Shown: in pieces, positions 1 to 6,892 of the stretch | Position numbering within the stretch: position 1 is the stretch's first letter | Layout of the letters: each line of letters begins with the position of its first letter | IMG/VR virus record: IMGVR_UViG_2681813313_000015 | Span: 1 to 7,370 of that record | Direction: 5' to 3' (one strand) | Source of the DNA: a virus | Taxonomy: Duplodnaviria; Heunggongvirae; Uroviricota; Caudoviricetes | DNA: 7,370 bases | Made by a program: the position numbers and the translations under genes | The notes under the pieces: model-generated | Database searches by the model: none | What the model was told of the DNA's origin: nothing | The model's input: only the letters and a program-made list of their open reading frames with translations

Positions 1-1020
1 CTACTTGCTAACCACGAGCGGCAGATCCAGTGTTGGTGTGATTTTTGTTTTACGATCGTAAATCAACACCTGATTTTCTGTTTTATGCCCGCTGAAAATT
101 TGTTTGTCGCGACTGCTGCCTTCGTAATCTGAGATCCCCTTAGCTTTTATGTCGTGAAAATTGCACCCGAACGGAACGCCAACTTTTTGCTCGGCTGAGC
201 GTTTAGCCTGATTCCACCAGTTGTTCAGCGTTTTAGCTATGACTTTCCCGCCTTTGGTTGTATTGATCACATATTCGCATGTACAGGAAGATACATTTCG
301 GGCTAACTGGATCGCTGTACGTAATCGCGGTGACCATTCCTTGATTTGTTTGGTGCCGGTTTTGTTTTGCTCAATGTAGATCCCTTTATCCATAATATCC
401 TGCCATTTCAACTCAAGCACATCACCGAGCCTTGCCGCACAGAGATAGGAAATCTCCATTGCAATGCGTAACTGTGGAATTGCTTCCGCATATATCGCTG
501 CATACTGTTCATCGGTGATGTAAACAGTGCGGGCTTTAAGAGAGAATTTTCTGACTCCTTTACATGGGTTATTCTTCACGTATCCACGCTCATATCCCCA
601 CCCGTATACTCGACTCAGGCTTGCCAGTTCATGATTTGCCTGGGTCTTGCTCTCAAGCCCTCGTTTATCCATGAAAATTCTTACCTGCTCAGTTTTGACA
701 TTATCAGCAAGCACTTTTCCGAATACCATCAGCAACGCCTTCTGATGTTGTCGATAATCTTTTTGGGTTCGGGGGGCCAGTTCTGTAAATGCAGGGGAGT
801 CTATAAACATGTGCCATAATTTAGCTACGGTCATTATGTTGTGGAGTTTTGCTTTTTCCAGTTCATAATTTTGCCAGACTTTAGCTACGCTGGTTTTCCG
901 CACTCTTCCTAGCCCTATAGTTCTTGTACTTCCTTCTGGTTTCCACACGTAACTGTAACCATTCGATCTAACCCGCGGTGGCAGTACATTATCTTTTTTA
1001 TTTTTTCTTGGTCTTCCCAT
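1..1020 (-). CDS. int: Phage integrase, tyrosine recombinase (lambda Int family)
   Basis: 339-aa ORF. N-terminus MGRPRK..LPPRVRSNGYSYVW..GLGR resembles the lambda Int arm-binding region. Catalytic region aligns by eye to lambda Int: AARLGD (R212), EQNKTG (K235), FHDIK (H308-x-x-R311 position), SGHK (H333), LIYDRK (Y342). Stop codon at 1-3. Confidence 0.9.
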   Translation of the reverse strand: MGRPRKNKKDNVLPPRVRSNGYSYVWKPEGSTRTIGLGRVRKTSVAKVWQNYELEKAKLHNIMTVAKLWHMFIDSPAFTELAPRTQKDYRQHQKALLMVFGKVLADNVKTEQVRIFMDKRGLESKTQANHELASLSRVYGWGYERGYVKNNPCKGVRKFSLKARTVYITDEQYAAIYAEAIPQLRIAMEISYLCAARLGDVLELKWQDIMDKGIYIEQNKTGTKQIKEWSPRLRTAIQLARNVSSCTCEYVINTTKGGKVIAKTLNNWWNQAKRSAEQKVGVPFGCNFHDIKAKGISDYEGSSRDKQIFSGHKTENQVLIYDRKTKITPTLDLPLVVSK

Positions 1021-1240
1021 TATTCAGCGCCTCAAAATCGGGTTCAGCAGAAACCAGTTCAGATGTTTTTGGCATCGTTGTCAGTCCGTGTGGAATATCC
1101 CTGCGTAGAACTATTGGTTCGTTTTTAGGACCGATTACAAATGGGATGCCGTGCAGTCTTAACTGGTGTTGCTGTTTTGTGTATCGCTCGTATTTCGTGA
1201 TCTCTTTAATCTCTGCTGGAGATAGAGTTAATTCGTACAT
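998..1240 (-). CDS. xis: Excisionase-like protein (Xis)
   Basis: 80-aa ORF immediately upstream of int and overlapping its start by 23 nt, the classic xis-int arrangement. The N-terminus MYELTL and basic C-terminus NGKTKKK resemble lambda Xis (MYLTLQEW...NGKKAKS). Only a weak AAGG is present upstream. Confidence 0.6.
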   Translation of the reverse strand: MYELTLSPAEIKEITKYERYTKQQHQLRLHGIPFVIGPKNEPIVLRRDIPHGLTTMPKTSELVSAEPDFEALNNGKTKKK

Positions 1241-1307: not shown

Positions 1308-3782
1308 TTAAAAATCAGCCTGACTCGGGATCAGTTTTTGCCAGATAGCTGAAACGTATTTTGCCTGATAACGGGCGTCATCAAGTGCATTATGGCGCTC
1401 ACCTTCGAATGGGATAGCAGTTCTGGCATCGAAGTCTATGGCTTTCCCCAGCTCAACGATTGTGCGTACATCGCGATCGTTGTAGTAACGCCACGGGCAG
1501 GGGATCCCCTGCCGTTCGTATGAACGGCGCAAAATCGTGTTGTCGAAGTTGGCTCCATTTCCCCAGACCTGAACAAAAAATTCACCGGAGTTTTCGTCGA
1601 TAAATTCCCGCAATTGTAACAGTGCATCATCTAACGGGATTTCATCGGTCATAATGGCAGACTGCGCTTCACGTGATTGCTTCAGCCACCTTTTAATGAC
1701 GTCACGATCAATGACTCCGCCAGCAGTTTCCAGATCGATAGTCTTACTAAATTCCGGTCCCATATCTCCGGTTTGCGGATCGAAAAATATTGCACCTATT
1801 GAGATAATCGGGGCATCCGGATTTTTTCCCATGGTTTTAAGGTCGATCATTAGATGGTCACACGTCCTGCTGGTGGATGTGATAACGTGATGACCGTTCA
1901 CCGTAATTAAGGGATCTGCCGTCTCGCCAGTTTCACTATCGCTGGCGTGGTCCTGAGCGCTGCCAGCATTCTCCTTGTGTGGATGTTCAGCGCCTTCCAT
2001 TTTCTCCGAATCGTCTTCCTGAACTTCAACCTGGTTCTTGTCATCGAATGTTTCCTGGTATGTTGCGTCGCCCATCACCGCGCCACAATCAGGGCAGTTG
2101 CCGCCGCCGGTCTGACCGCAGGCGGTGCAGATTTTTTCCGGTTCCTGTTGCGCTACTGGTTCAGGTTGTTTCGTTTCTGGCTCGTTTTGTAACGCATTTG
2201 GGCTGTTTTGTTCCGCTTTCTGGCCGTTCTGTTCCGTTTCTTGCTGGTTCTGATTCACTGAATCGCGGGTTTCAATCCCCTTCACCCATTTCGGATCATT
2301 CGGGTCGCTAATCCCTGCAACAAATTCACCACGTGATACAGCAAGCAACTTATTGGCGTCAGGCTGGCTGATATTGGCTGCCTGCATAATTTTGTTTACT
2401 TCGTCAGCGGTAACTTTTACCGGCTCTGGTTGTGCGATCGTGTCAGATGCACCAGTATTTTGTTGTGAACCTGAGTACGTGCCGTTTTTACGTGCGAAGT
2501 ATTCCTCTTTTGTGATTTCCGTAGCTCCCAGGGCCAGTGCTTTTTCCAGACCAGAAAGTTTGTTTGCGCGACCGTATTTTTCGCCGTCCTTATCAGTGAA
2601 AAGGAAGTAGAACGGTCCCTCACGCTCTACAGATGGTTCGTCTTCCACTTCGCATTCGGTTTTTTCGTTGTCCGGCATTGCCGTTTCCACTGCATCAGTT
2701 TCTGGTACTGGTGACGGGAGAGTACCAGCTGTGCCCTGATTTGTTCCTTCGTCATCTTCAAACACGCCCTTGGTAGTCAGGTATTCAGTGATGTATTTGT
2801 TCAGTGCTACGGGATCTTTGTGAATGTCGATCGGACGCTCACGGACAAGGCCAAAAATAGTCTGACGGTCGTAGCGAACGGCATCGGGTTGTTTGCGCAT
2901 TGATGCGGAAATGTGCTTCCAGTCTTCGCGATCTTTGTCGATAACTTCATTTTTTGCCCAGCGATGGATGCTGCCGTCAATGTTTCCGGTATCAATATCG
3001 CCAGGCCAGAGAGCGTAGGCCAGTTCTTCATCCAGCGTTTTCCATGTCTGCTTGTATTCGCGACAAATGGCGGCAGTGACTGGGTTGATTTTTCCTGCTG
3101 AGTTTTCAGTGTTCTGTTGATTGACTCTGGCGCTGGCGAGATCAACAACAGACGTGTATTTTCCAGTCTCTTTGCGCTCTGCGTCCTGCCGTTTTTTCCA
3201 GTTACGTAATTCAGCCTGAATTTCGGGCCATTTGGCACCCGGATTACATTTGTGTTTAACCCATCCGATAGCGAACAGTTTGCGTTCCGGATACATAGCG
3301 TTAATTTCAGGCGTTTTCATCAGTGCTTCAACGATATGCCCGTCAAAGGTAGCAACGTCTTCCTGCAGTAATTCCTGCGCGTCAATCGCCATATCAACGG
3401 TGATGTTTTCACATGTACCGAACTTAACCAGGACCGCGTTCTGTACTTCAAGGGACAGCTTGTCAAAATTGACGTTCATCGGATCGGATTCTGGTTCGAC
3501 CGGAATAAAGGAAGCGGATTCCTCATCCCAGCGGTTTTCCTGCATATATTCAGCATCCCAGGAATCGAGGGCAGGGCGGGGTATACCGGGTTTATCCTCG
3601 CAAACAAGAAATTTATAAGCGCAGTCCTGAGCAGCCGGATAATGTTCCAGGAATTGCCAGTGAAATTTTGCGCGGGCGCGACGTTCATCACCGGCTTCAA
3701 TGGCAGTGGCTACAGCGACGGCACCTTCTTCCTTTATTGCCTGTTCATCAGGAATAGCAGCGCAAATAAAGACCTTACTCAT
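1308..3782 (-). CDS. Large multidomain prophage exonuclease (exodeoxyribonuclease VIII/RecE-like annotation family) with C-terminal DEDDh-type 3'-5' exonuclease domain and an internal zinc ribbon
   Basis: 824-aa uninterrupted ORF with ATG at 3780-3782 and GAGG about 10 nt upstream. C-terminal ~190 aa (nt ~1311-1892) carries DnaQ-like motifs: MIDLKTMG...IISIGAI, TIDLETAGG, GNGANFD, HNALDDA. Zinc ribbon C552-x2-C555-x6-C562-x2-C565 at nt 2088-2129. Central region LLAVSRGEFVAGISDPNDPKWVKGI is recalled as typical of ExoVIII-annotated prophage proteins; that recollection is unverified. Confidence 0.8.
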   Translation of the reverse strand: MSKVFICAAIPDEQAIKEEGAVAVATAIEAGDERRARAKFHWQFLEHYPAAQDCAYKFLVCEDKPGIPRPALDSWDAEYMQENRWDEESASFIPVEPESDPMNVNFDKLSLEVQNAVLVKFGTCENITVDMAIDAQELLQEDVATFDGHIVEALMKTPEINAMYPERKLFAIGWVKHKCNPGAKWPEIQAELRNWKKRQDAERKETGKYTSVVDLASARVNQQNTENSAGKINPVTAAICREYKQTWKTLDEELAYALWPGDIDTGNIDGSIHRWAKNEVIDKDREDWKHISASMRKQPDAVRYDRQTIFGLVRERPIDIHKDPVALNKYITEYLTTKGVFEDDEGTNQGTAGTLPSPVPETDAVETAMPDNEKTECEVEDEPSVEREGPFYFLFTDKDGEKYGRANKLSGLEKALALGATEITKEEYFARKNGTYSGSQQNTGASDTIAQPEPVKVTADEVNKIMQAANISQPDANKLLAVSRGEFVAGISDPNDPKWVKGIETRDSVNQNQQETEQNGQKAEQNSPNALQNEPETKQPEPVAQQEPEKICTACGQTGGGNCPDCGAVMGDATYQETFDDKNQVEVQEDDSEKMEGAEHPHKENAGSAQDHASDSETGETADPLITVNGHHVITSTSRTCDHLMIDLKTMGKNPDAPIISIGAIFFDPQTGDMGPEFSKTIDLETAGGVIDRDVIKRWLKQSREAQSAIMTDEIPLDDALLQLREFIDENSGEFFVQVWGNGANFDNTILRRSYERQGIPCPWRYYNDRDVRTIVELGKAIDFDARTAIPFEGERHNALDDARYQAKYVSAIWQKLIPSQADF

Positions 3783-3868: not shown

Positions 3869-3888
3869 GCTGGAGGGTTATCCAGCCG
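3869..3888. other. Perfect 7-bp stem hairpin GGCTGGA-gggtta-TCCAGCC overlapping the stop codon of the 62-aa gene, upstream of the exonuclease gene
   Basis: Direct reading. A T-rich run (GGTGTTTCGTTATT) follows on the plus strand only. Role unknown. Confidence 0.4.
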
Positions 3889-4066
3889 GTGTTTCGTTAT
3901 TCAGGTACAGCGATACTTTTTTTACCGGGAGGCATTCACCAGAAATTTTTTGCTCGTCTCTTGCCTGGAGGCAGGATTCTTTACTGGCATAAATTCTGGT
4001 AATCACATTCTGTGATTCACCCGTTATAAGAAAAACCGTCATCATCAGTGCAAATGCTGAAGTCAT
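3878..4066 (-). CDS. Hypothetical small protein with hydrophobic N-terminal segment (possible membrane or secreted peptide)
   Basis: 62-aa ORF. Its ATG overlaps the stop of the upstream gene (ATGA on the minus strand at 4063-4066). SD-like GGAG lies 7 nt upstream. N-terminus MTSAFALMMTVFLITG is hydrophobic; two Cys residues. Function unknown. Confidence 0.5.
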   Translation of the reverse strand: MTSAFALMMTVFLITGESQNVITRIYASKESCLQARDEQKISGECLPVKKVSLYLNNETPAG

Positions 4067-4251
4067 TGACGTTCTCCGAAAATACCAAGTTCAAGAAGAG
4101 CAATTCGGGAAAGTATGGAATTATCATTGAGCAGATAAGGCTCATATTTCCTCATATTAATGGCATCTTCAGTAAACTCCCGGTTACTGAGCAGAACACC
4201 AATATCAAAACAACCTTCAGACGTATTAACGTTTGGTAATAACGTTTCCAT
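4063..4251 (-). CDS. Hypothetical protein (62 aa from ATG at 4251; a GTG-initiated 97-aa form would extend to 4356)
   Basis: The ATG at 4249-4251 is preceded by GAGGA with 7-nt spacing. The stop overlaps the start of the next gene (ATGA), indicating translational coupling. No recognisable motif. Confidence 0.5.
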   Translation of the reverse strand: METLLPNVNTSEGCFDIGVLLSNREFTEDAINMRKYEPYLLNDNSILSRIALLELGIFGERQ

Positions 4252-4283
4252 TATCGCGTCCTCAACAATGAATTTTGTGATGC

Positions 4284-4327
4284 GGTGCCTGGTGCCTCCA
4301 GGTGACGTTAACCAGTTAACAATTAAC
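4284..4327. repeat. Short tandem repeats: GGTGCCT x2 (4284-4297) and three TTAAC units (4308-4312, 4316-4320, 4323-4327)
   Basis: Direct reading. Lies upstream of the ATG at 4251, inside the GTG-extended form of that ORF. Confidence 0.5.
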
Positions 4328-4503
4328 GCCGGATACAGAGAATCCACCCATAACACTGTTTTTGGTTTTAACTGTTCCGCGTGCGCTCAGCCGCATTCAC
4401 CGCATCACAAAATTCACTTTAAAAACGGCGGCAGAGCAGTCACGGAGTAAAACTGATACCGCCAAACGTCACCAGAAAATTGATAACAGAGGGCGTTGCA
4501 GCG

Positions 4504-4540
4504 GGGTTGTCACTTAAGCGTATGGTCAACCTGACAACCC
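4504..4540. repeat. Perfect 9-bp inverted repeat GGGTTGTCA-N19-TGACAACCC in noncoding DNA
   Basis: Direct reading of the sequence. Not followed by a T-tract on either strand, so it is not a canonical terminator. Confidence 0.6.
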
Positions 4541-4754
4541 GGTGTCCTCAACGGGGGAAGGAATAACCCCGCCATACTTACCGCCGCGCCATTTCGCGGG
4601 TTGCCACAACCGGAAGCGCACGGTCGAATTAAATTTAACGACACCGTACAGTGAGACGAACTTCGCCGTGCGCTTTCGTGTTGTGTGCCTGCTTTTAACC
4701 ACGTCAGGCGAGGTGGTATCCTTCTTATCCCGAATAACCAAGAAGGAAATCTAT

Positions 4755-4955
4755 ATGACTAAAGAAGAATTTGTCTCTTATATTTTTGATAAAACGGTTG
4801 AAATGTATGCCGCTACTTACGGGTCCTGTAATCCTCTGAATAAACCAGAGGGGAAAGATGATTTCGACAAAATTTACCGCTTCTTGGAGGACCGCTATAT
4901 CAAAAGGTTAGAGGACGCAGGGATCAAATCCCCAGTGAAGTCACCATTGTCCTGA
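4755..4955 (+). CDS. Hypothetical 66-aa protein, moron-like gene convergent to the early-left operon
   Basis: ATG at 4755 preceded by AAGGA (4743-4747) with 7-nt spacing. AT-rich composition. The in-frame upstream extension (from GTG at 4542) has no RBS. Its 3' end overlaps the convergent minus-strand gene by 32 nt. Confidence 0.5.
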   Translation: MTKEEFVSYIFDKTVEMYAATYGSCNPLNKPEGKDDFDKIYRFLEDRYIKRLEDAGIKSPVKSPLS

Positions 4956-5289
4956 GAACTTGCAGGACGTCATGATCGTAACTTCCATCCAAACCGCGAC
5001 GGCAAATTGCTTCTCGTATTACCGGAAGCAGTTCGCTGGAAATCTCGGTGCATATTTCACCTGATAATACGCTTGGCTCAAGTGAGAATATTGGTGAACT
5101 TACGGTCTTGGTCTCGACAGTTTCAGAGTCAGTGCCAACATTATAAAGCTCAACGAAAGCGGTCTTGATTTTCCGGGCCAGATCTTTTGCTGGCTCGCTT
5201 GCAATATCTTTCCCGATTTCTCGCAGCACAGAATGCAATGTATGAGCTGCTGTTTTCTGTACATCAGACGGTAAATCTTTAAATTCCAT
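4924..5289 (-). CDS. Hypothetical mildly acidic protein (121 aa from ATG at 5289; alternative ATG at 5301 gives 125 aa)
   Basis: The ATG at 5287-5289 is preceded by GAGG with 6-nt spacing. The alternative ATG at 5299-5301 overlaps the upstream stop (TGATG). Second gene of a coupled pair downstream of the putative PL/OL. No recognisable motif. Confidence 0.55.
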   Translation of the reverse strand: MEFKDLPSDVQKTAAHTLHSVLREIGKDIASEPAKDLARKIKTAFVELYNVGTDSETVETKTVSSPIFSLEPSVLSGEICTEISSELLPVIREAICRRGLDGSYDHDVLQVLRTMVTSLGI

Positions 5290-5300
5290 CGTCAGCCTCA

Positions 5301-5453
5301 TCAGTCAGTGTTTCTGGCTAACCAGCAACGCGCGCCAGATCCGGTTTTAAACGTTTTGCTTTTGGTATATGTCATCGCGGTGAACGTACCGCCCTGGTTG
5401 GGGAACACGCCGTACACCAGAGATTCGTTGTTGCCAAGATCGATAGTATCCAT
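5301..5453 (-). CDS. Hypothetical small protein (50 aa from ATG at 5453; the track's 81-aa form starting at 5546 is probably not translated)
   Basis: The ATG at 5451-5453 is preceded by GAGGT with 4-5-nt spacing. The upstream ATG at 5546 lies inside the operator and promoter spacer and has no SD. Confidence 0.4.
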   Translation of the reverse strand: MDTIDLGNNESLVYGVFPNQGGTFTAMTYTKSKTFKTGSGARCWLARNTD

Positions 5454-5530
5454 GTTGACCTCATTTCCCCTTAACGCCGGGGTAGCGGAACTGTTTGCTG
5501 AGAACACCGTGCGGTGTCTTGATGGATCGT

Positions 5531-5582
5531 AATTTAGTTTTCTCATGAATATTGGTCAAGTACTTTTAATGAGAAAACTCAA
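5531..5582 (-). promoter_or_regulatory. OL/PL-like operator pair and leftward early promoter
   Basis: Two inverted copies of the operator motif (5534-5546 as the complement of ATGAGAAAACTAA; 5569-5582 ATGAGAAAACTCAA) flank a 22-bp spacer. On the minus strand: -35 TTGACC (5559-5554), 17-bp spacer, -10 TAAATT (5536-5531). Confidence 0.55.
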
Positions 5583-5587
5583 TATTT

Positions 5588-5627
5588 AATGCAAAATAAA
5601 GCCAATACATTGAAATGTAAGGCTTTA
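5588..5627 (-). terminator. Putative intrinsic terminator downstream of the repressor gene
   Basis: Interrupted hairpin (outer stem TAAAGCC/GGCTTTA at 5597-5603 and 5621-5627; inner stem TACAT/ATGTA) followed on the minus strand by UUUUGCAUU. The stem is AT-rich, so it is weak. Confidence 0.35.
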
Positions 5628-5644
5628 AAATTTGTGAAGGGGGG

Positions 5645-6052
5645 TTATTGATGTTTGTTACGTTTGCGAGCTTCTAGTAGCTCGGTGAATAGGCGATTAA
5701 AATTCTCAACGCGGGCACGGAGTTCGCTGATTTGTGCTTGCTGCTCTGATTTTGGAAGTGCGCGATACAATCGCAACATCTCCAACTCATCTTCCGATAA
5801 GTCTAAGGCGCTGTTGAGTGCAACTGGTGGATCTGGTGTTTTATCCTCGTCACCAAACAGTATCCAAGTTGGTGAACATTGCAATACCTCAGCCAGGCGA
5901 TGCAAATTTTGCCCGCGCGGGGCTGTATGGTCGCTTTCCCATAGTGAAATTGATGAGCCAGATACGCCAGCAGCTTTGCTTAAATCGTTTTGACTTAAAC
6001 CAACCTGTTTGCGTCTTTCTCTAATTCGTTGACCTAAAGTTTTCTCGTTCAT
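5645..6052 (-). CDS. Prophage immunity repressor, XRE/cI-type HTH, without an S24 peptidase domain (RacR-like)
   Basis: 135-aa ORF. N-terminal HTH_3-type motif (GQRIRERRKQVGLSQNDLSKAAGVSGSSISLWE). Divergent from a Cro-like gene across a 77-bp region carrying palindromic operators. No Ala-Gly/Ser-Lys autocleavage module was seen. Confidence 0.85.
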   Translation of the reverse strand: MNEKTLGQRIRERRKQVGLSQNDLSKAAGVSGSSISLWESDHTAPRGQNLHRLAEVLQCSPTWILFGDEDKTPDPPVALNSALDLSEDELEMLRLYRALPKSEQQAQISELRARVENFNRLFTELLEARKRNKHQ

Positions 6053-6073
6053 ATTTAGATATCTTAATAACCC

Positions 6074-6116
6074 TTGACTTGAGATTCCTTGAGTGATTAC
6101 TATTGAGAAAACTCAA
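6074..6116. promoter_or_regulatory. OR-like divergent promoter/operator region between repressor and cro-like gene
   Basis: Palindrome TTGAGAAAACTCAA at 6103-6116, extra TTGAG half-sites at 6079-6083 and 6089-6093, and -35-like TTGACT at 6074-6079. No clean -10 could be placed. Confidence 0.6.
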
Positions 6117-6129
6117 CTTTGGAGGGGTG

Positions 6130-6357
6130 ATGTTTAAATCAGACGTAATTAATTTTTATGGGACGAAAGCCAAAGTAGCGAAAGCTGCTGGTGTTGATCC
6201 ATCTGCTGTTTCTCAATGGGGGGAACTGGTTCCTGAAGGTCGCGCGATGCGCCTGCAAGAGGCATCCGGCGGGGAACTTCAGTACGACCCCAAAGTTTAT
6301 GACGAATATCGTAAGGCAAAGCGGGCGGGGCGGTTGAACAATGAAAATCACCCCTGA
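6130..6357 (+). CDS. Cro/YdaS-like small HTH regulator
   Basis: 75 aa from ATG at 6130 with GGAGG 4 nt upstream. Contains the motif FYGTKAKVAKAAGVDPSAVSQW typical of Cro/YdaS-like proteins. The track's TTG start at 6103 would place the first codons inside the operator palindrome. Confidence 0.8.
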   Translation: MFKSDVINFYGTKAKVAKAAGVDPSAVSQWGELVPEGRAMRLQEASGGELQYDPKVYDEYRKAKRAGRLNNENHP

Positions 6358-6892
6358 ACAGGTTTGTGAGGCTCTGGATGCCTGGGTATGCCGACCAGGA
6401 ATGACACAGGAGCAGGCGACGATATTAATCACGGAAGCATTCTGGGCTCTGAAAGAACGCCCGAACATCGATGTTCAACGCGTCACGTTTAATGATGGCG
6501 AGGTTGATCAACGGGCGCTGGGCGTTAACCGGGTGAAGATATTCGAACGCTGGAAAGCTATCGACACCAGGGATAAGCGGAAAAAATTCACGGCGCTGAT
6601 TCCGGCAATTATGGAGGCTATCCGAATTAGTGATTTCAGGCTGTATCGTGAGATCAGTGATGGAAAAAGCATTACGTACATGATCGCCGGATTAAACAAA
6701 GAATATGGCGATGTGGTGGAGTCCGGGCTGCTTTTTGCGGATCCAGCTGTTGTGGAACGTGAGACTGACGAGCTTATAGAAAAAGCTATTGCTTTCAAGC
6801 ATGCGTATCGTCAGCAATATCAATATTACTTTGCAGATAAACAAATGTCTGCCAGGGGTTCGTATGAGTATCGATGCACTACGATGGGCTAA
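6341..6892 (+). CDS. cII-like/YdaT-family protein
   Basis: 183-aa ORF overlapping the cro-like stop by 17 nt. The position (third gene of a repressor-Cro-cII-like trio) and the segment IFERWKAIDTRDKRKKFTALIPAIMEAI resemble Rac YdaT as recalled; the family assignment is unverified. Confidence 0.65.
   Translation: MKITPEQVCEALDAWVCRPGMTQEQATILITEAFWALKERPNIDVQRVTFNDGEVDQRALGVNRVKIFERWKAIDTRDKRKKFTALIPAIMEAIRISDFRLYREISDGKSITYMIAGLNKEYGDVVESGLLFADPAVVERETDELIEKAIAFKHAYRQQYQYYFADKQMSARGSYEYRCTTMG

Follow-up and report, generated by a model that had tools for sequence, protein, structure and literature searches.

Which protein reads the 14-bp word TTGAG-AAAA-CTCAA, which lies between the divergent genes for a 135-aa repressor and a Cro-like protein and recurs as an inverted pair beyond the repressor stop codon, and what would its binding control? 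The window, by which we mean the whole 7,370-nucleotide stretch of viral DNA that was analysed, is very probably, judging from sequence comparison, the immunity region of a Qin/mEp460-type lambdoid E. coli prophage, with the motif (core TGAGAAAACTCA) serving as the cognate operator of a DicA-family repressor. The switch is a variant of the known DicA/DicC and P22 switches and constitutes a new allele of them. The features on which this reading is built are collected in Table 1.

Table 1. Genes, promoters, predicted or candidate operators and a terminator-like hairpin of the immunity region (positions in the window).
Feature	Position	Strand	Details
Leftward operon, predicted control from 5531-5559	4063..5453	-	ydfA...DicF...DicB
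DicB	4063-4356 as long ORF	-	E 2.8e-36
DicF sRNA	4426-4477	-	Rfam 72.5 bits
125-aa gene of leftward operon	4924-5301	-	
ydfA-like gene	5301-5453	-	DUF1391 E 2e-25
Leftward early promoter (dicBp / PL equivalent)	5531..5559	-	-35 TTGACC 5559-5554, 17-bp spacer, -10 TAAATT 5536-5531
Promoter-proximal left operator (P22 OL1 position)	5533..5546	-	ATGAGAAAACTAAA; predicted operator
Promoter-distal left operator (P22 OL2 position)	5569..5582	+	ATGAGAAAACTCAA; predicted operator
Terminator-like hairpin after repressor stop codon	5596..5628	-	fold -12.3 kcal/mol, z -3.8, then AUUUUG
Immunity repressor, 135 aa, DicA family	5645..6052	-	N-terminal HTH like P22 c2; no peptidase domain
Candidate repressor-proximal operator (K-12 Oa / P22 OR3 equivalent)	6054..6067	.	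TTTAGATATCTTAA, 10/14 match
Rightward early promoter (dicCp / PR equivalent)	6074..6103	+	-35 TTGACT 6074-6079, 18-bp spacer, -10 TACTAT 6098-6103
Candidate weak middle operator (K-12 Om / P22 OR2 equivalent)	6079..6093	.	TTGAGATTCCTTGAG
Main right operator (K-12 Oc / P22 OR1 equivalent)	6103..6116	.	TTGAGAAAACTCAA, exact match; predicted operator
Cro-like regulator, 75 aa, DicC/P22 Cro family	6130..6357	+	start = ATG 6130, not TTG 6103

The initial annotation had described one 14-bp palindrome marking both operator regions. Copies are indeed present in both, an exact one at 6103-6116, within the 77-bp repressor-cro intergenic region (6053-6129), and two on the left with one mismatch (5569-5582) and two mismatches (5533-5546), but the palindrome is imperfect: its 5-bp arms flank a centre, AAAA, that is asymmetric. 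On the left, the two copies form an inverted pair around a 22-bp spacer (5547-5568), as had been stated, although the proximal copy had been given one base short, as 5534-5546; a repeat search extends the pair to 18-nt arms with 89% complementarity. When up to two mismatches are allowed, these three sites are found in the window where 0.14 would be expected, a number matched in none of 300 Markov simulations, and in 24.7 kb comprising an identical prophage and its host flank the same three sites are again the only ones (0.28 expected). Likewise, the 9-mer core GAGAAAACT is present in four copies against 0.09 expected. With up to four mismatches there is no enrichment across the whole window (12 sites observed, 9 expected), and because of this the weak OR2- and OR3-like sites considered below rest on position, alignment with P22 and invariance. 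We found no paper in the published literature that contains the 14-mer.

The 135-aa repressor matches NF007257 along its entire length (238.3 bits against a cutoff of 101, residues 1-135 of 135) and HTH_3 with an E value of 1.2e-16. Its residues 1-72 match the N-terminal domain of P22 c2 (1ADR, E 2e-15; 2R1J, E 8e-15), a match that is confined to this domain, the one portion of c2 that the PDB contains. The profile search returned no S24 or Peptidase_S24 match, and the score against Phage_CI_repr, 20.4 bits, is under the cutoff of 22. It shares 55% identity with K-12 DicA and differs from it chiefly in the helix-turn-helix; its C-terminal domain is conserved among DicA alleles. The divergently encoded Cro-like protein scores 167.6 bits against NF007282 (cutoff 130) and matches P22_Cro (E 1.1e-17) and PDB entry 1RZS (E 1.9e-12). 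As the initial annotation had recognised, the MRKLN N-termini of the predicted open reading frames are the motif in translation: the two long frames at 5301..5546 (minus strand) and 6103..6357 (plus strand) both begin with MRKLN, and 5569-5589 reads MRKLNI followed by a stop codon. The actual gene starts are further in than those of the MRKLN frames: DUF1391 matches a 50-aa product that begins at 5453, and the 75-aa product beginning at 6130 is the one matched by P22_Cro and DicC. The gene order of the leftward operon is that of K-12 Qin. A near-identical module is present in mEp460_ev081, which has been described as a functional temperate phage and reported to carry a rem-like gene (PMC10448788). 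In a genome that is 100% identical to 5440-6140, a rem gene split by IS3 lies about 8 kb to the right, outside the window.

A scan of 5400-6200 for sigma-70-like promoters gave only two hits, both of which are overlapped by the motif. At the rightward promoter, whose -35 element is conserved across all family members, the motif overlaps the last base of the -10 element and the predicted start, and it lines up with K-12 Oc and the apparent P22 OR1 position; the start of the homologous K-12 dicC promoter has been mapped by 5'RACE (PMC3441716). At the leftward promoter, whose TTGACC and spacing are identical in K-12, P22 and Buttiauxella, the distal copy of the motif lies directly upstream of the -35 element and aligns with the OL sites of K-12 and the presumed ones of P22. 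The spacer between the two left-hand copies had been said to hold both promoter elements; TTGACC lies inside it, but TAAATT overlaps the proximal copy at its outer end, so that the outer half-site reads CTAAA rather than CTCAA and doubles as part of the -10 element. The P22 site at the equivalent position overlaps the same TAAATT. For the repressor gene the simple scan detected no promoter, which matches what has been reported for K-12 dicA, and auto-activation of the repressor is therefore argued from analogy. No Shine-Dalgarno sequence precedes 6052, and the repressor mRNA may be leaderless. The terminator-like hairpin at 5596-5628 would set the left operator region apart from the repressor transcript; 3 of its 33 sites are variable among 52 haplotypes, and it falls under the threshold of a simple terminator scan.

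Two weaker candidate sites lie between the repressor gene and the main right operator. On the minus strand, 6079-6093 is TCAAGGAATCTCAA, which matches at 10/14 positions and includes one perfect half-site; the site aligns base for base with the presumed P22 OR2 (CTAAAGGAATCTTTAG). Five of its 15 positions vary among the 52 haplotypes, and in Buttiauxella it reads CTGAG...TTGCG. Extra TTGAG half-sites at spacings of about 10 bp had been noted here; they are present at 6079, 6089 and 6103, with spacings of 10 and 14 bp, and represent a candidate OR2 equivalent. Operator function of 6079-6093 is uncertain, since K-12 Om did not bind DicA alone; nor did K-12 Oa, the equivalent of the second site (PMC3441716). 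This second site, 6054-6067, has the minus-strand sequence TTAAGATATCTAAA and stops 2 bp short of the repressor ATG. It aligns with the presumed P22 OR3 and is the only site to retain a TTAAG half-site. None of its 14 positions varies among the 52 haplotypes, and it is invariant in Buttiauxella and C. braakii. The proximal OL position of a relative reads CTGAGATATCTAAA, a sequence that ties the ATAT-centred form to this family of operators. The initial annotation had omitted this OR3-like site, and also the fourth exact copy of the 9-mer core, which lies at 6038-6046 on the minus strand within repressor codons 2-5. As an extra operator in the first repressor codons this copy was rejected, since it is not conserved in Buttiauxella, and it is left unexplained.

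The motif hardly varies among natural copies, and the bases between its copies vary freely. Among 52 distinct haplotypes, the number of minor-allele haplotypes per site is 0.0-0.9 in the operators, 8.6-13.4 in the OL spacers and 2.7-4.2 in the flanks. The distal left operator has a mean of 0.86 against 8.6 and 13.4 in the spacers adjoining it, the proximal one has a mean of 0.21, and 2 of the 14 sites of the main right operator are variable. Some natural copies carry operator substitutions. In Buttiauxella ferragutiae and B. gaviniae, whose repressors are 75-76% identical to that of the window, all three positions retain the motif although the flanks have diverged, the right-hand copy being invariant or differing by one outer base; a more diverged IMG/VR relative likewise has the motif at all three positions despite flank divergence. 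Absence of the motif from the equivalent positions in prophages with the same repressor had been named as an observation that would speak against an operator; in prophages that share the repressor helix, including those of the two Buttiauxella species and the diverged relative, it is retained there.

The motif also co-varies with the recognition helix of the repressor. Helix SGSSIS or SDSSIS is paired with TTGAG-AAAA-CTCAA, AHVTIS (PPompW) with CTTAGGAAAATCTAAG, and SHVSVS (K-12) with TTGTTAGTCATAACTAACAA, such that heteroimmune alleles have a different palindrome at the same positions. In a 12-mer matrix in which the OR of each of 13 loci was compared with every OL, clean separation was observed only for the window and the L016/L017 groups, and we take this as minor support because AT-rich sequence yields matches with one or two mismatches by chance. 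Together with the DicA family match and the position of the operators, co-variation supports the proposal of the initial annotation that the 135-aa protein is probably the immunity repressor acting on both cro and the leftward operon.

The 14-mer could instead be the site of the Cro-like protein only, with the 135-aa repressor acting through other sequences. Cro binds the same operators in lambdoid switches, and the N-terminal region of Cro also varies between immunity types, so that most comparisons cannot separate the two proteins. One can: C. braakii L009 shares the Cro helix of the window, SAVSQW, yet its repressor helix and its Oc and OL sites differ, a pattern which indicates that the motif tracks the repressor rather than Cro. 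Moreover, the motif occupies the K-12 Oc position, where in vivo evidence supports DicA binding (PMC3441716), and it is 6054-6067, not the 14-mer, that remains unchanged where the Cro helix is kept. We therefore consider a Cro-only site very improbable. The same constancy, which holds wherever SAVSQW (close to AAVSQW of P22 Cro) is kept, including C. braakii, raises the idea that repressor and Cro may read partly different DNA codes, the repressor operators having shifted to TTGAG-AAAA-CTCAA and Cro silencing the repressor mainly through 6054-6067, with its P22-like half-site, as a private site. This idea, based on a single natural hybrid, represented by L009 and a near-identical IMG/VR locus, and on the invariance of 6054-6067, seems unlikely to us; if true, the specificities of the two proteins could evolve semi-independently. 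When the OR3-like site was used in a pattern scan for more hybrids in which this Cro is combined with another repressor, only the C. braakii type was recovered.

There is even less reason to credit a host-factor site (for example, that of a nucleoid protein), a shared promoter element or a duplication remnant without a specific regulator, even though the region is AT-rich, similar words are common in the window at relaxed thresholds, and H-NS/Cnu and Fis/Hfq influence the K-12 dic locus (PMC3441716, PMC10448788). The motif switches with the immunity allele, whereas the leader next to it, the -35 elements and the C-terminal portions of the two regulators remain constant between alleles, and the operators are conserved across genera and far less variable than the spacers between them. 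Least credible of all is a nucleic-acid hairpin formed by the inverted pair at 5533-5582, for example as a cruciform or, in transcripts reading through from the repressor gene, as a signal for processing or termination. The long complementary arms would suit such a structure, and the minus-strand RNA folds into an 11-bp stem (-10.5 kcal/mol, z -2.2). This fold is modest, however, and no U-tract follows the stem, a stronger terminator-like hairpin is present further upstream, at 5596-5628, and the single motif at 6103-6116 has no partner. Natural variants alter one arm without compensation, such as TTGAGTTTTATCAT with an unchanged ATGAGAAAACTAAA, and heteroimmune alleles keep two sites here but not their complementarity. 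The hairpin reading of the left pair was rejected on the grounds of its modest fold and its lack of a U-tract and of compensatory changes. An operator read by the DicA-family repressor remains the preferred explanation.

The closest relatives of the switch are DicA/DicC and P22 immC, with lambda as a looser analogue. K-12 Qin and the window share the order dicC-like, dicA-like, ydfA...dicF...dicB, both regulator families above curated cutoffs, a main palindrome on the -10 element of the dicC-type promoter exactly as Oc, two operator-like sites bracketing the TTGACC -35 element of the dicB-type promoter, and a short repressor (135 aa here) without a cleavage domain. A rem gene also occurs in this type of prophage, although the copy in the matching genome is split by IS3. 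For the K-12 allele, DicA binding at Oc is supported by in vivo assays, single-base operator mutations there abolish the effect, and DicA represses dicC and activates dicA (PMC3441716); it also represses dicBp, and Rem relieves this repression (PMC10448788). The two differ in the repressor helix (SGSSIS here, SHVSVS in K-12) and in the operator, TTGAG-AAAA-CTCAA with a 14-bp core here and TTGTTAGTCATAACTAACAA of 20 bp in K-12, differences from which the two types should be heteroimmune. They also differ in that K-12 Qin is a cryptic prophage, while the module of the window resides in a prophage with integrase, excisionase and exonuclease. With PPompW and P22, these alleles make up a small natural series relating recognition-helix residues to operator bases, which could help to predict superinfection immunity groups among Qin/mEp460-like prophages.

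P22 immC resembles the window in its homologous repressor N-terminal domain and Cro, in a collinear alignment of OR and OL that includes the TTGACC -35 and TAAATT -10 elements of PL, and in the GGAATCT core of the presumed OR2. The half-sites contacted in the P22 operator consensus, which we compared with the P22 sequence, are TTAAG/CTTAA. The strong sites of the window read TTGAG/CTCAA, one symmetric base apart, and so fall outside the P22 operator sequence; outer operator positions 1-2 and 17-18 are also not conserved here. Further differences lie in the downstream operon, in the C-terminal half of the repressor, which is unrelated to the cleavable c2 domain, and in the centre-readout residues, which are E44 and N46 in P22 and A44 and R46 here. 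P22 has OL1-3, whereas no OL3-like site was found in the window. The 4-bp centre fits the non-contacted centre of P22: the P22 repressor makes no contact with the central 4 bp and binds best to A-tract centres (PMC4267663), a preference with which the invariant AAAA agrees. A symmetric dimer gives no obvious reason for the centre to be always AAAA and never another A/T tetramer.

Lambda has the same logic: repressor and cro genes that diverge, a right operator in three parts, and a left operator at the leftward early promoter. The lambda OR/OL logic invoked by the initial annotation is supported by the positions of the motif on both predicted promoters and by the K-12 Oc and P22 alignments. 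Unlike CI, the repressor of the window has no full-length homology to CI, no S24 domain and no known CI-type C-terminal domain for cooperativity or looping, and OL and OR are merely about 530 bp apart. By description, the short repressors without a cleavage site GfoR, GfhR and GtgR of the Gifsy type, with which DicA has been grouped (PMC3121763), are also similar; there, induction occurs when a small antirepressor removes the repressor from DNA.

From these comparisons, we infer how the repressor would bind, its dimer geometry, its auto-activation and its route of induction. A repressor dimer would bind through the P22-c2-like helix-turn-helix and contact the outer half-sites TTGAG and CTCAA, with the A-tract centre read indirectly, as by the P22 repressor. 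On 6103-6116 it would cover the -10/+1 region of the cro-like promoter and shut it off, and it would probably also stimulate its own weak promoter, by analogy with K-12 DicA at Oc. Dimers at 5533-5546 and 5569-5582 would bracket the -35 element and cover the -10 element of the leftward promoter, thereby silencing ydfA...DicF...DicB, and the weaker sites 6079-6093 and 6054-6067 would take the OR2 and OR3 positions. The Cro-like protein would be expected on the same operator set, acting in the opposite direction. Given the lack of an S24 cleavage domain, derepression would probably proceed by way of a Rem/Gifsy-type antirepressor rather than by RecA-driven self-cleavage.

No concept is changed by this reading, since the logic of the switch has already been described for DicA/DicC, P22 and lambda. 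What it adds is a predicted operator sequence, with a clearer view of how the operators are arranged, for an immunity type that is very common among E. coli prophages. DicB and DicF, which would be controlled from this region, act on the division of the host cell and on its susceptibility to phages. Most of the 700-bp region is carried by about 800 of 5,426 complete E. coli genomes.

The window represents the left arm of an E. coli lambdoid prophage; its features are collected in the table. Positions 5440-6140 are a 100% match to strain Z1323HEC0108, most of this segment is present in approximately 800 of 5,426 complete genomes, and the nearest phage records, mEp460_ev081 and HannyBb, have about 91% DNA identity. 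Along its entire length the 135-aa repressor matches the NCBI DicA model (238 bits; cutoff, 101), and it has an HTH_3 domain; a domain search found no peptidase domain in it. The Cro-like protein scores 167.6 bits against the DicC model (cutoff, 130). In K-12 Qin, as in the window, DicF separates DicB from the early genes. Only residues 36-97 of the 97-aa long ORF are matched by the DicB family, and the RefSeq annotation is 62 aa; this fits an internal in-phase start, reportedly mentioned in the title of Cam et al. 1988, one of the works cited by PMC10448788. In a 100%-match genome (NZ_CP148374.1), an IS3-family element interrupts the rem antirepressor gene (20218-21782 of locus L098) of the matching prophage, and yccA adjoins the prophage. 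We also observed a 66-aa gene of unknown function at 4755-4955 (+), antisense within the leftward operon (phrog_34441, E 1.5e-50); its end overlaps the 3' end of the 125-aa gene, and it is annotated in mEp460_ev081 and RefSeq too.

Features of the window; variability is the mean number of haplotypes with the minor allele, per site
Feature	Coordinates	Strand	Remarks	Variability
Integrase	1-1020	-		
Small DUF4224 protein, probably excisionase	998-1240	-		
Exonuclease	1308-3782	-	824 aa	
ydfD-like	3878-4066	-		
DicB	4063-4356	-	long ORF 97 aa	
DicF sRNA	4426-4477	-	Rfam RF00039, 72.5 bits	
125-aa gene	4924-5301	-		
ydfA-like	5301-5453	-	DUF1391	
Leftward promoter	5559-5554, 5536-5531	-	-35 TTGACC, 17 bp, -10 TAAATT	
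Proximal OL copy	5533-5546	-	ATGAGAAAACTAAA	0.21
OL spacer	5547-5553			13.4
OL spacer	5560-5568			8.6
Distal OL copy	5569-5582	+	ATGAGAAAACTCAA	0.86
Repressor	5645-6052	-	135 aa, NCBI DicA model	0.66 (coding sequence)
OR3/Oa-position site	6054-6067		TTAAGATATCTAAA	0.0
Rightward promoter	6074-6079, 6098-6103	+	-35 TTGACT, 18 bp, -10 TACTAT	
Main OR copy	6103-6116		TTGAGAAAACTCAA	0.21
OR flanks				2.7-4.2
Cro-like gene	6130-6357	+	75 aa, DicC model	
YdaT/CII-like gene	6341-6892	+		

The 14-mer is an imperfect palindrome, with an asymmetric AAAA between 5-bp arms. We found it at 6103-6116 and as an inverted pair with a 22-bp spacer at OL, as the initial annotation had described; its plus-strand OL copy was correctly placed, and the start of 5534 given for the minus-strand copy is one base short (5533). 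Chance does not explain these copies: sites with two or fewer mismatches number three against 0.14 expected, a count reached in 0 of 300 simulations, and the 9-mer core GAGAAAACT occurs four times against 0.09 expected. With up to three mismatches the comparison with shuffled sequence is less sharp (three against 1.2 expected). The identical prophage with its host flank (24.7 kb) has the 14-mer at the same three sites only. The fourth exact core, at 6038-6046 (-) in repressor codons 2-5 (N-E-K-T), is unexpected by chance and is not conserved in Buttiauxella, where the homologues read GAAATGACT. ORF translation bears out that the MRKLN N-termini given to three ORFs are the 14-mer translated, and according to the family models, the genes truly start at 5453 and 6130.

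A consensus scan of 5400-6200 gave exactly two sigma-70-like sites, one leftward and one rightward, and detected no promoter for the repressor; the K-12 dicA promoter was likewise not detected (PMC3441716). The 6103-6116 copy begins on the final base of the rightward -10 and spans the expected start site. At OL, the distal copy lies directly upstream of the leftward -35, and the proximal copy occupies the -35/-10 spacer and extends into the -10. Thus, the 22-bp spacer, which had been said to hold both hexamers, does not hold the -10. It is at the bases shared with TAAATT that the proximal copy is off the palindrome (CTAAA, not CTCAA), from which we infer a dual constraint, as operator and as -10. 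A TTTT at 5564-5567 is invariant in 52 haplotypes despite being outside the 14-mer; on the minus strand it is AAAA, some 41-44 bases upstream of the leftward start, and could be UP-element-like.

Conservation of the motif in prophages with the same repressor had been proposed as a check on the operator reading, and the motif is indeed kept at the equivalent positions. In mEp460_ev081 and HannyBb all three copies are identical to those of the window; the OL spacer and flanks differ. For a population sample we took 80 IMG/VR loci with near-identical repressors, the window, 2 phage records and 2 MAG contigs, giving 52 distinct haplotypes, from which the variability values in the table derive. Repressors of Buttiauxella ferragutiae and B. 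gaviniae have 75-76% identity to that of the window (helix SDSSIS versus SGSSIS), and both species carry TTGAGAAAACTCAA or a one-outer-base variant at OR and both OL positions within diverged surroundings. Two further IMG/VR variants also keep the motif at OR and OL, one of them with CTGAGATATCTAAA as its proximal OL copy. Among 79 loci (of L018-L097), the exact distal OL copy is absent in 14, the proximal in 5 and the OR copy in 3; such variants, of which TTGAGTTTTATCAT and ATGATAAAACTAAA are examples, may reflect mutation of operators in prophages undergoing decay.

The alleles share the -35 hexamers, the flanking leader and the C-terminal portions of the two regulators; the HTH regions and palindromes vary together. 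The window allele pairs repressor helix SGSSIS with TTGAG-AAAA-CTCAA, the PPompW allele AHVTIS with CTTAGGAAAATCTAAG and the K-12 Qin allele SHVSVS with TTGTTAGTCATAACTAACAA, the latter two having related OL sites as well; other genera have further palindrome variants at equivalent places. A matrix of OR against OL 12-mers, noisy from AT-rich background, supports co-variation in only two groups, one of them that of the window. This co-variation with the immunity allele contradicts a site for a host factor. A site for Cro only is contradicted by K-12 Oc and by the C. braakii allele L009, which has the Cro helix of the window and differs in repressor helix (SHATIS) and main operators, so that the 14-mer tracks the repressor and not Cro. 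The OL pair, whose arms extend to 18 nt with 89% complementarity (repeat finder), is unlikely to act as a hairpin, given that the fold is modest and without a U-tract, that compensatory changes are absent among natural variants, and that the motif is also single at OR.

The initial annotation was correct in substance: the 14-mer copies are almost certainly the operators of a P22-related immunity module of the DicA/DicC kind, in a heteroimmune allele. Repressor binding, auto-activation and antirepressor induction are what we infer for it. In K-12 Qin, a 20-bp inverted repeat, Oc, overlaps the dicC promoter -10; evidence from in vivo assays supports binding of DicA to Oc, the effect being lost on single-base change, and DicA at this site both represses dicC and is required for transcription of dicA, with no DicA binding by Om or Oa on their own (PMC3441716). 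DicA also represses dicBp, Rem relieves this repression, and the dic locus with DicC acts like a bistable switch (PMC10448788). The window 14-mer occupies the Oc position, and its OL pair flanks the same TTGACC as two Oc-like sites at dicBp. Switch logic of this kind is known from earlier work; a literature search found no paper with the 14-mer of this allele.

The N-terminal 72 residues of the repressor are homologous to the DNA-binding domain of P22 c2 (E 2e-15), solved on operator DNA, and the window Cro is homologous to P22 Cro. By sequence alignment, OR and OL are collinear between the two, with the TTGACC and TAAATT hexamers in common. The P22 operator consensus is ATTTAAG-N4-CTTAAAT, and the sites that we take on this basis to be OR1, OR2 and OR3 correspond to 6103-6116, 6079-6093 and 6054-6067, and those that we take to be OL1 and OL2 to 5533-5546 and 5569-5582. 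On this frame the half-sites are one symmetric base apart (TTGAG in the window, TTAAG in P22). P22 has six 18-bp symmetric operator sites contacted at positions 2-7 and 12-17; the central 4 bp are uncontacted, an A-tract centre binds best, and residues E44 and N46 are tied to readout of this centre (PMC4267663). The preference for an A-tract fits the invariant AAAA of the 14-mer. We note simply that the alignment places A44/R46 in the window repressor against E44/N46 in c2; Buttiauxella has A44/R46, K-12 E44/T46, PPompW Q44/A46 and C. braakii E44/S46.

The extra TTGAG half-sites described earlier lie at 6079 and 6089 and together make up a candidate OR2/Om-equivalent, which has one perfect half-site, is moderately conserved and aligns base for base with the presumed P22 OR2. 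Missed earlier was 6054-6067, which matches at 10 of 14 positions and stops 2 bp short of the repressor ATG. It is invariant in the 52 haplotypes, in Buttiauxella and upstream of the repressor ATG of L009; given the shared Cro helix of that allele and its other repressor helix and operators, this P22-OR3-like site may be tied to Cro instead of the repressor.

Directly after the repressor stop lies a conserved, terminator-like hairpin at 5596-5628 (-) (-12.3 kcal/mol, z -3.8; 3 of 33 sites vary in 52 haplotypes), followed by AUUUUG. The leftward operon leader, 5454-5524 (-), is nearly unchanged across the heteroimmune K-12 and PPompW alleles, which places the mosaic joint at the leftward promoter -10/+1. 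The leader contains two small hairpins, at 5504-5517 and 5467-5482, and as a whole folds no better than shuffled sequence.
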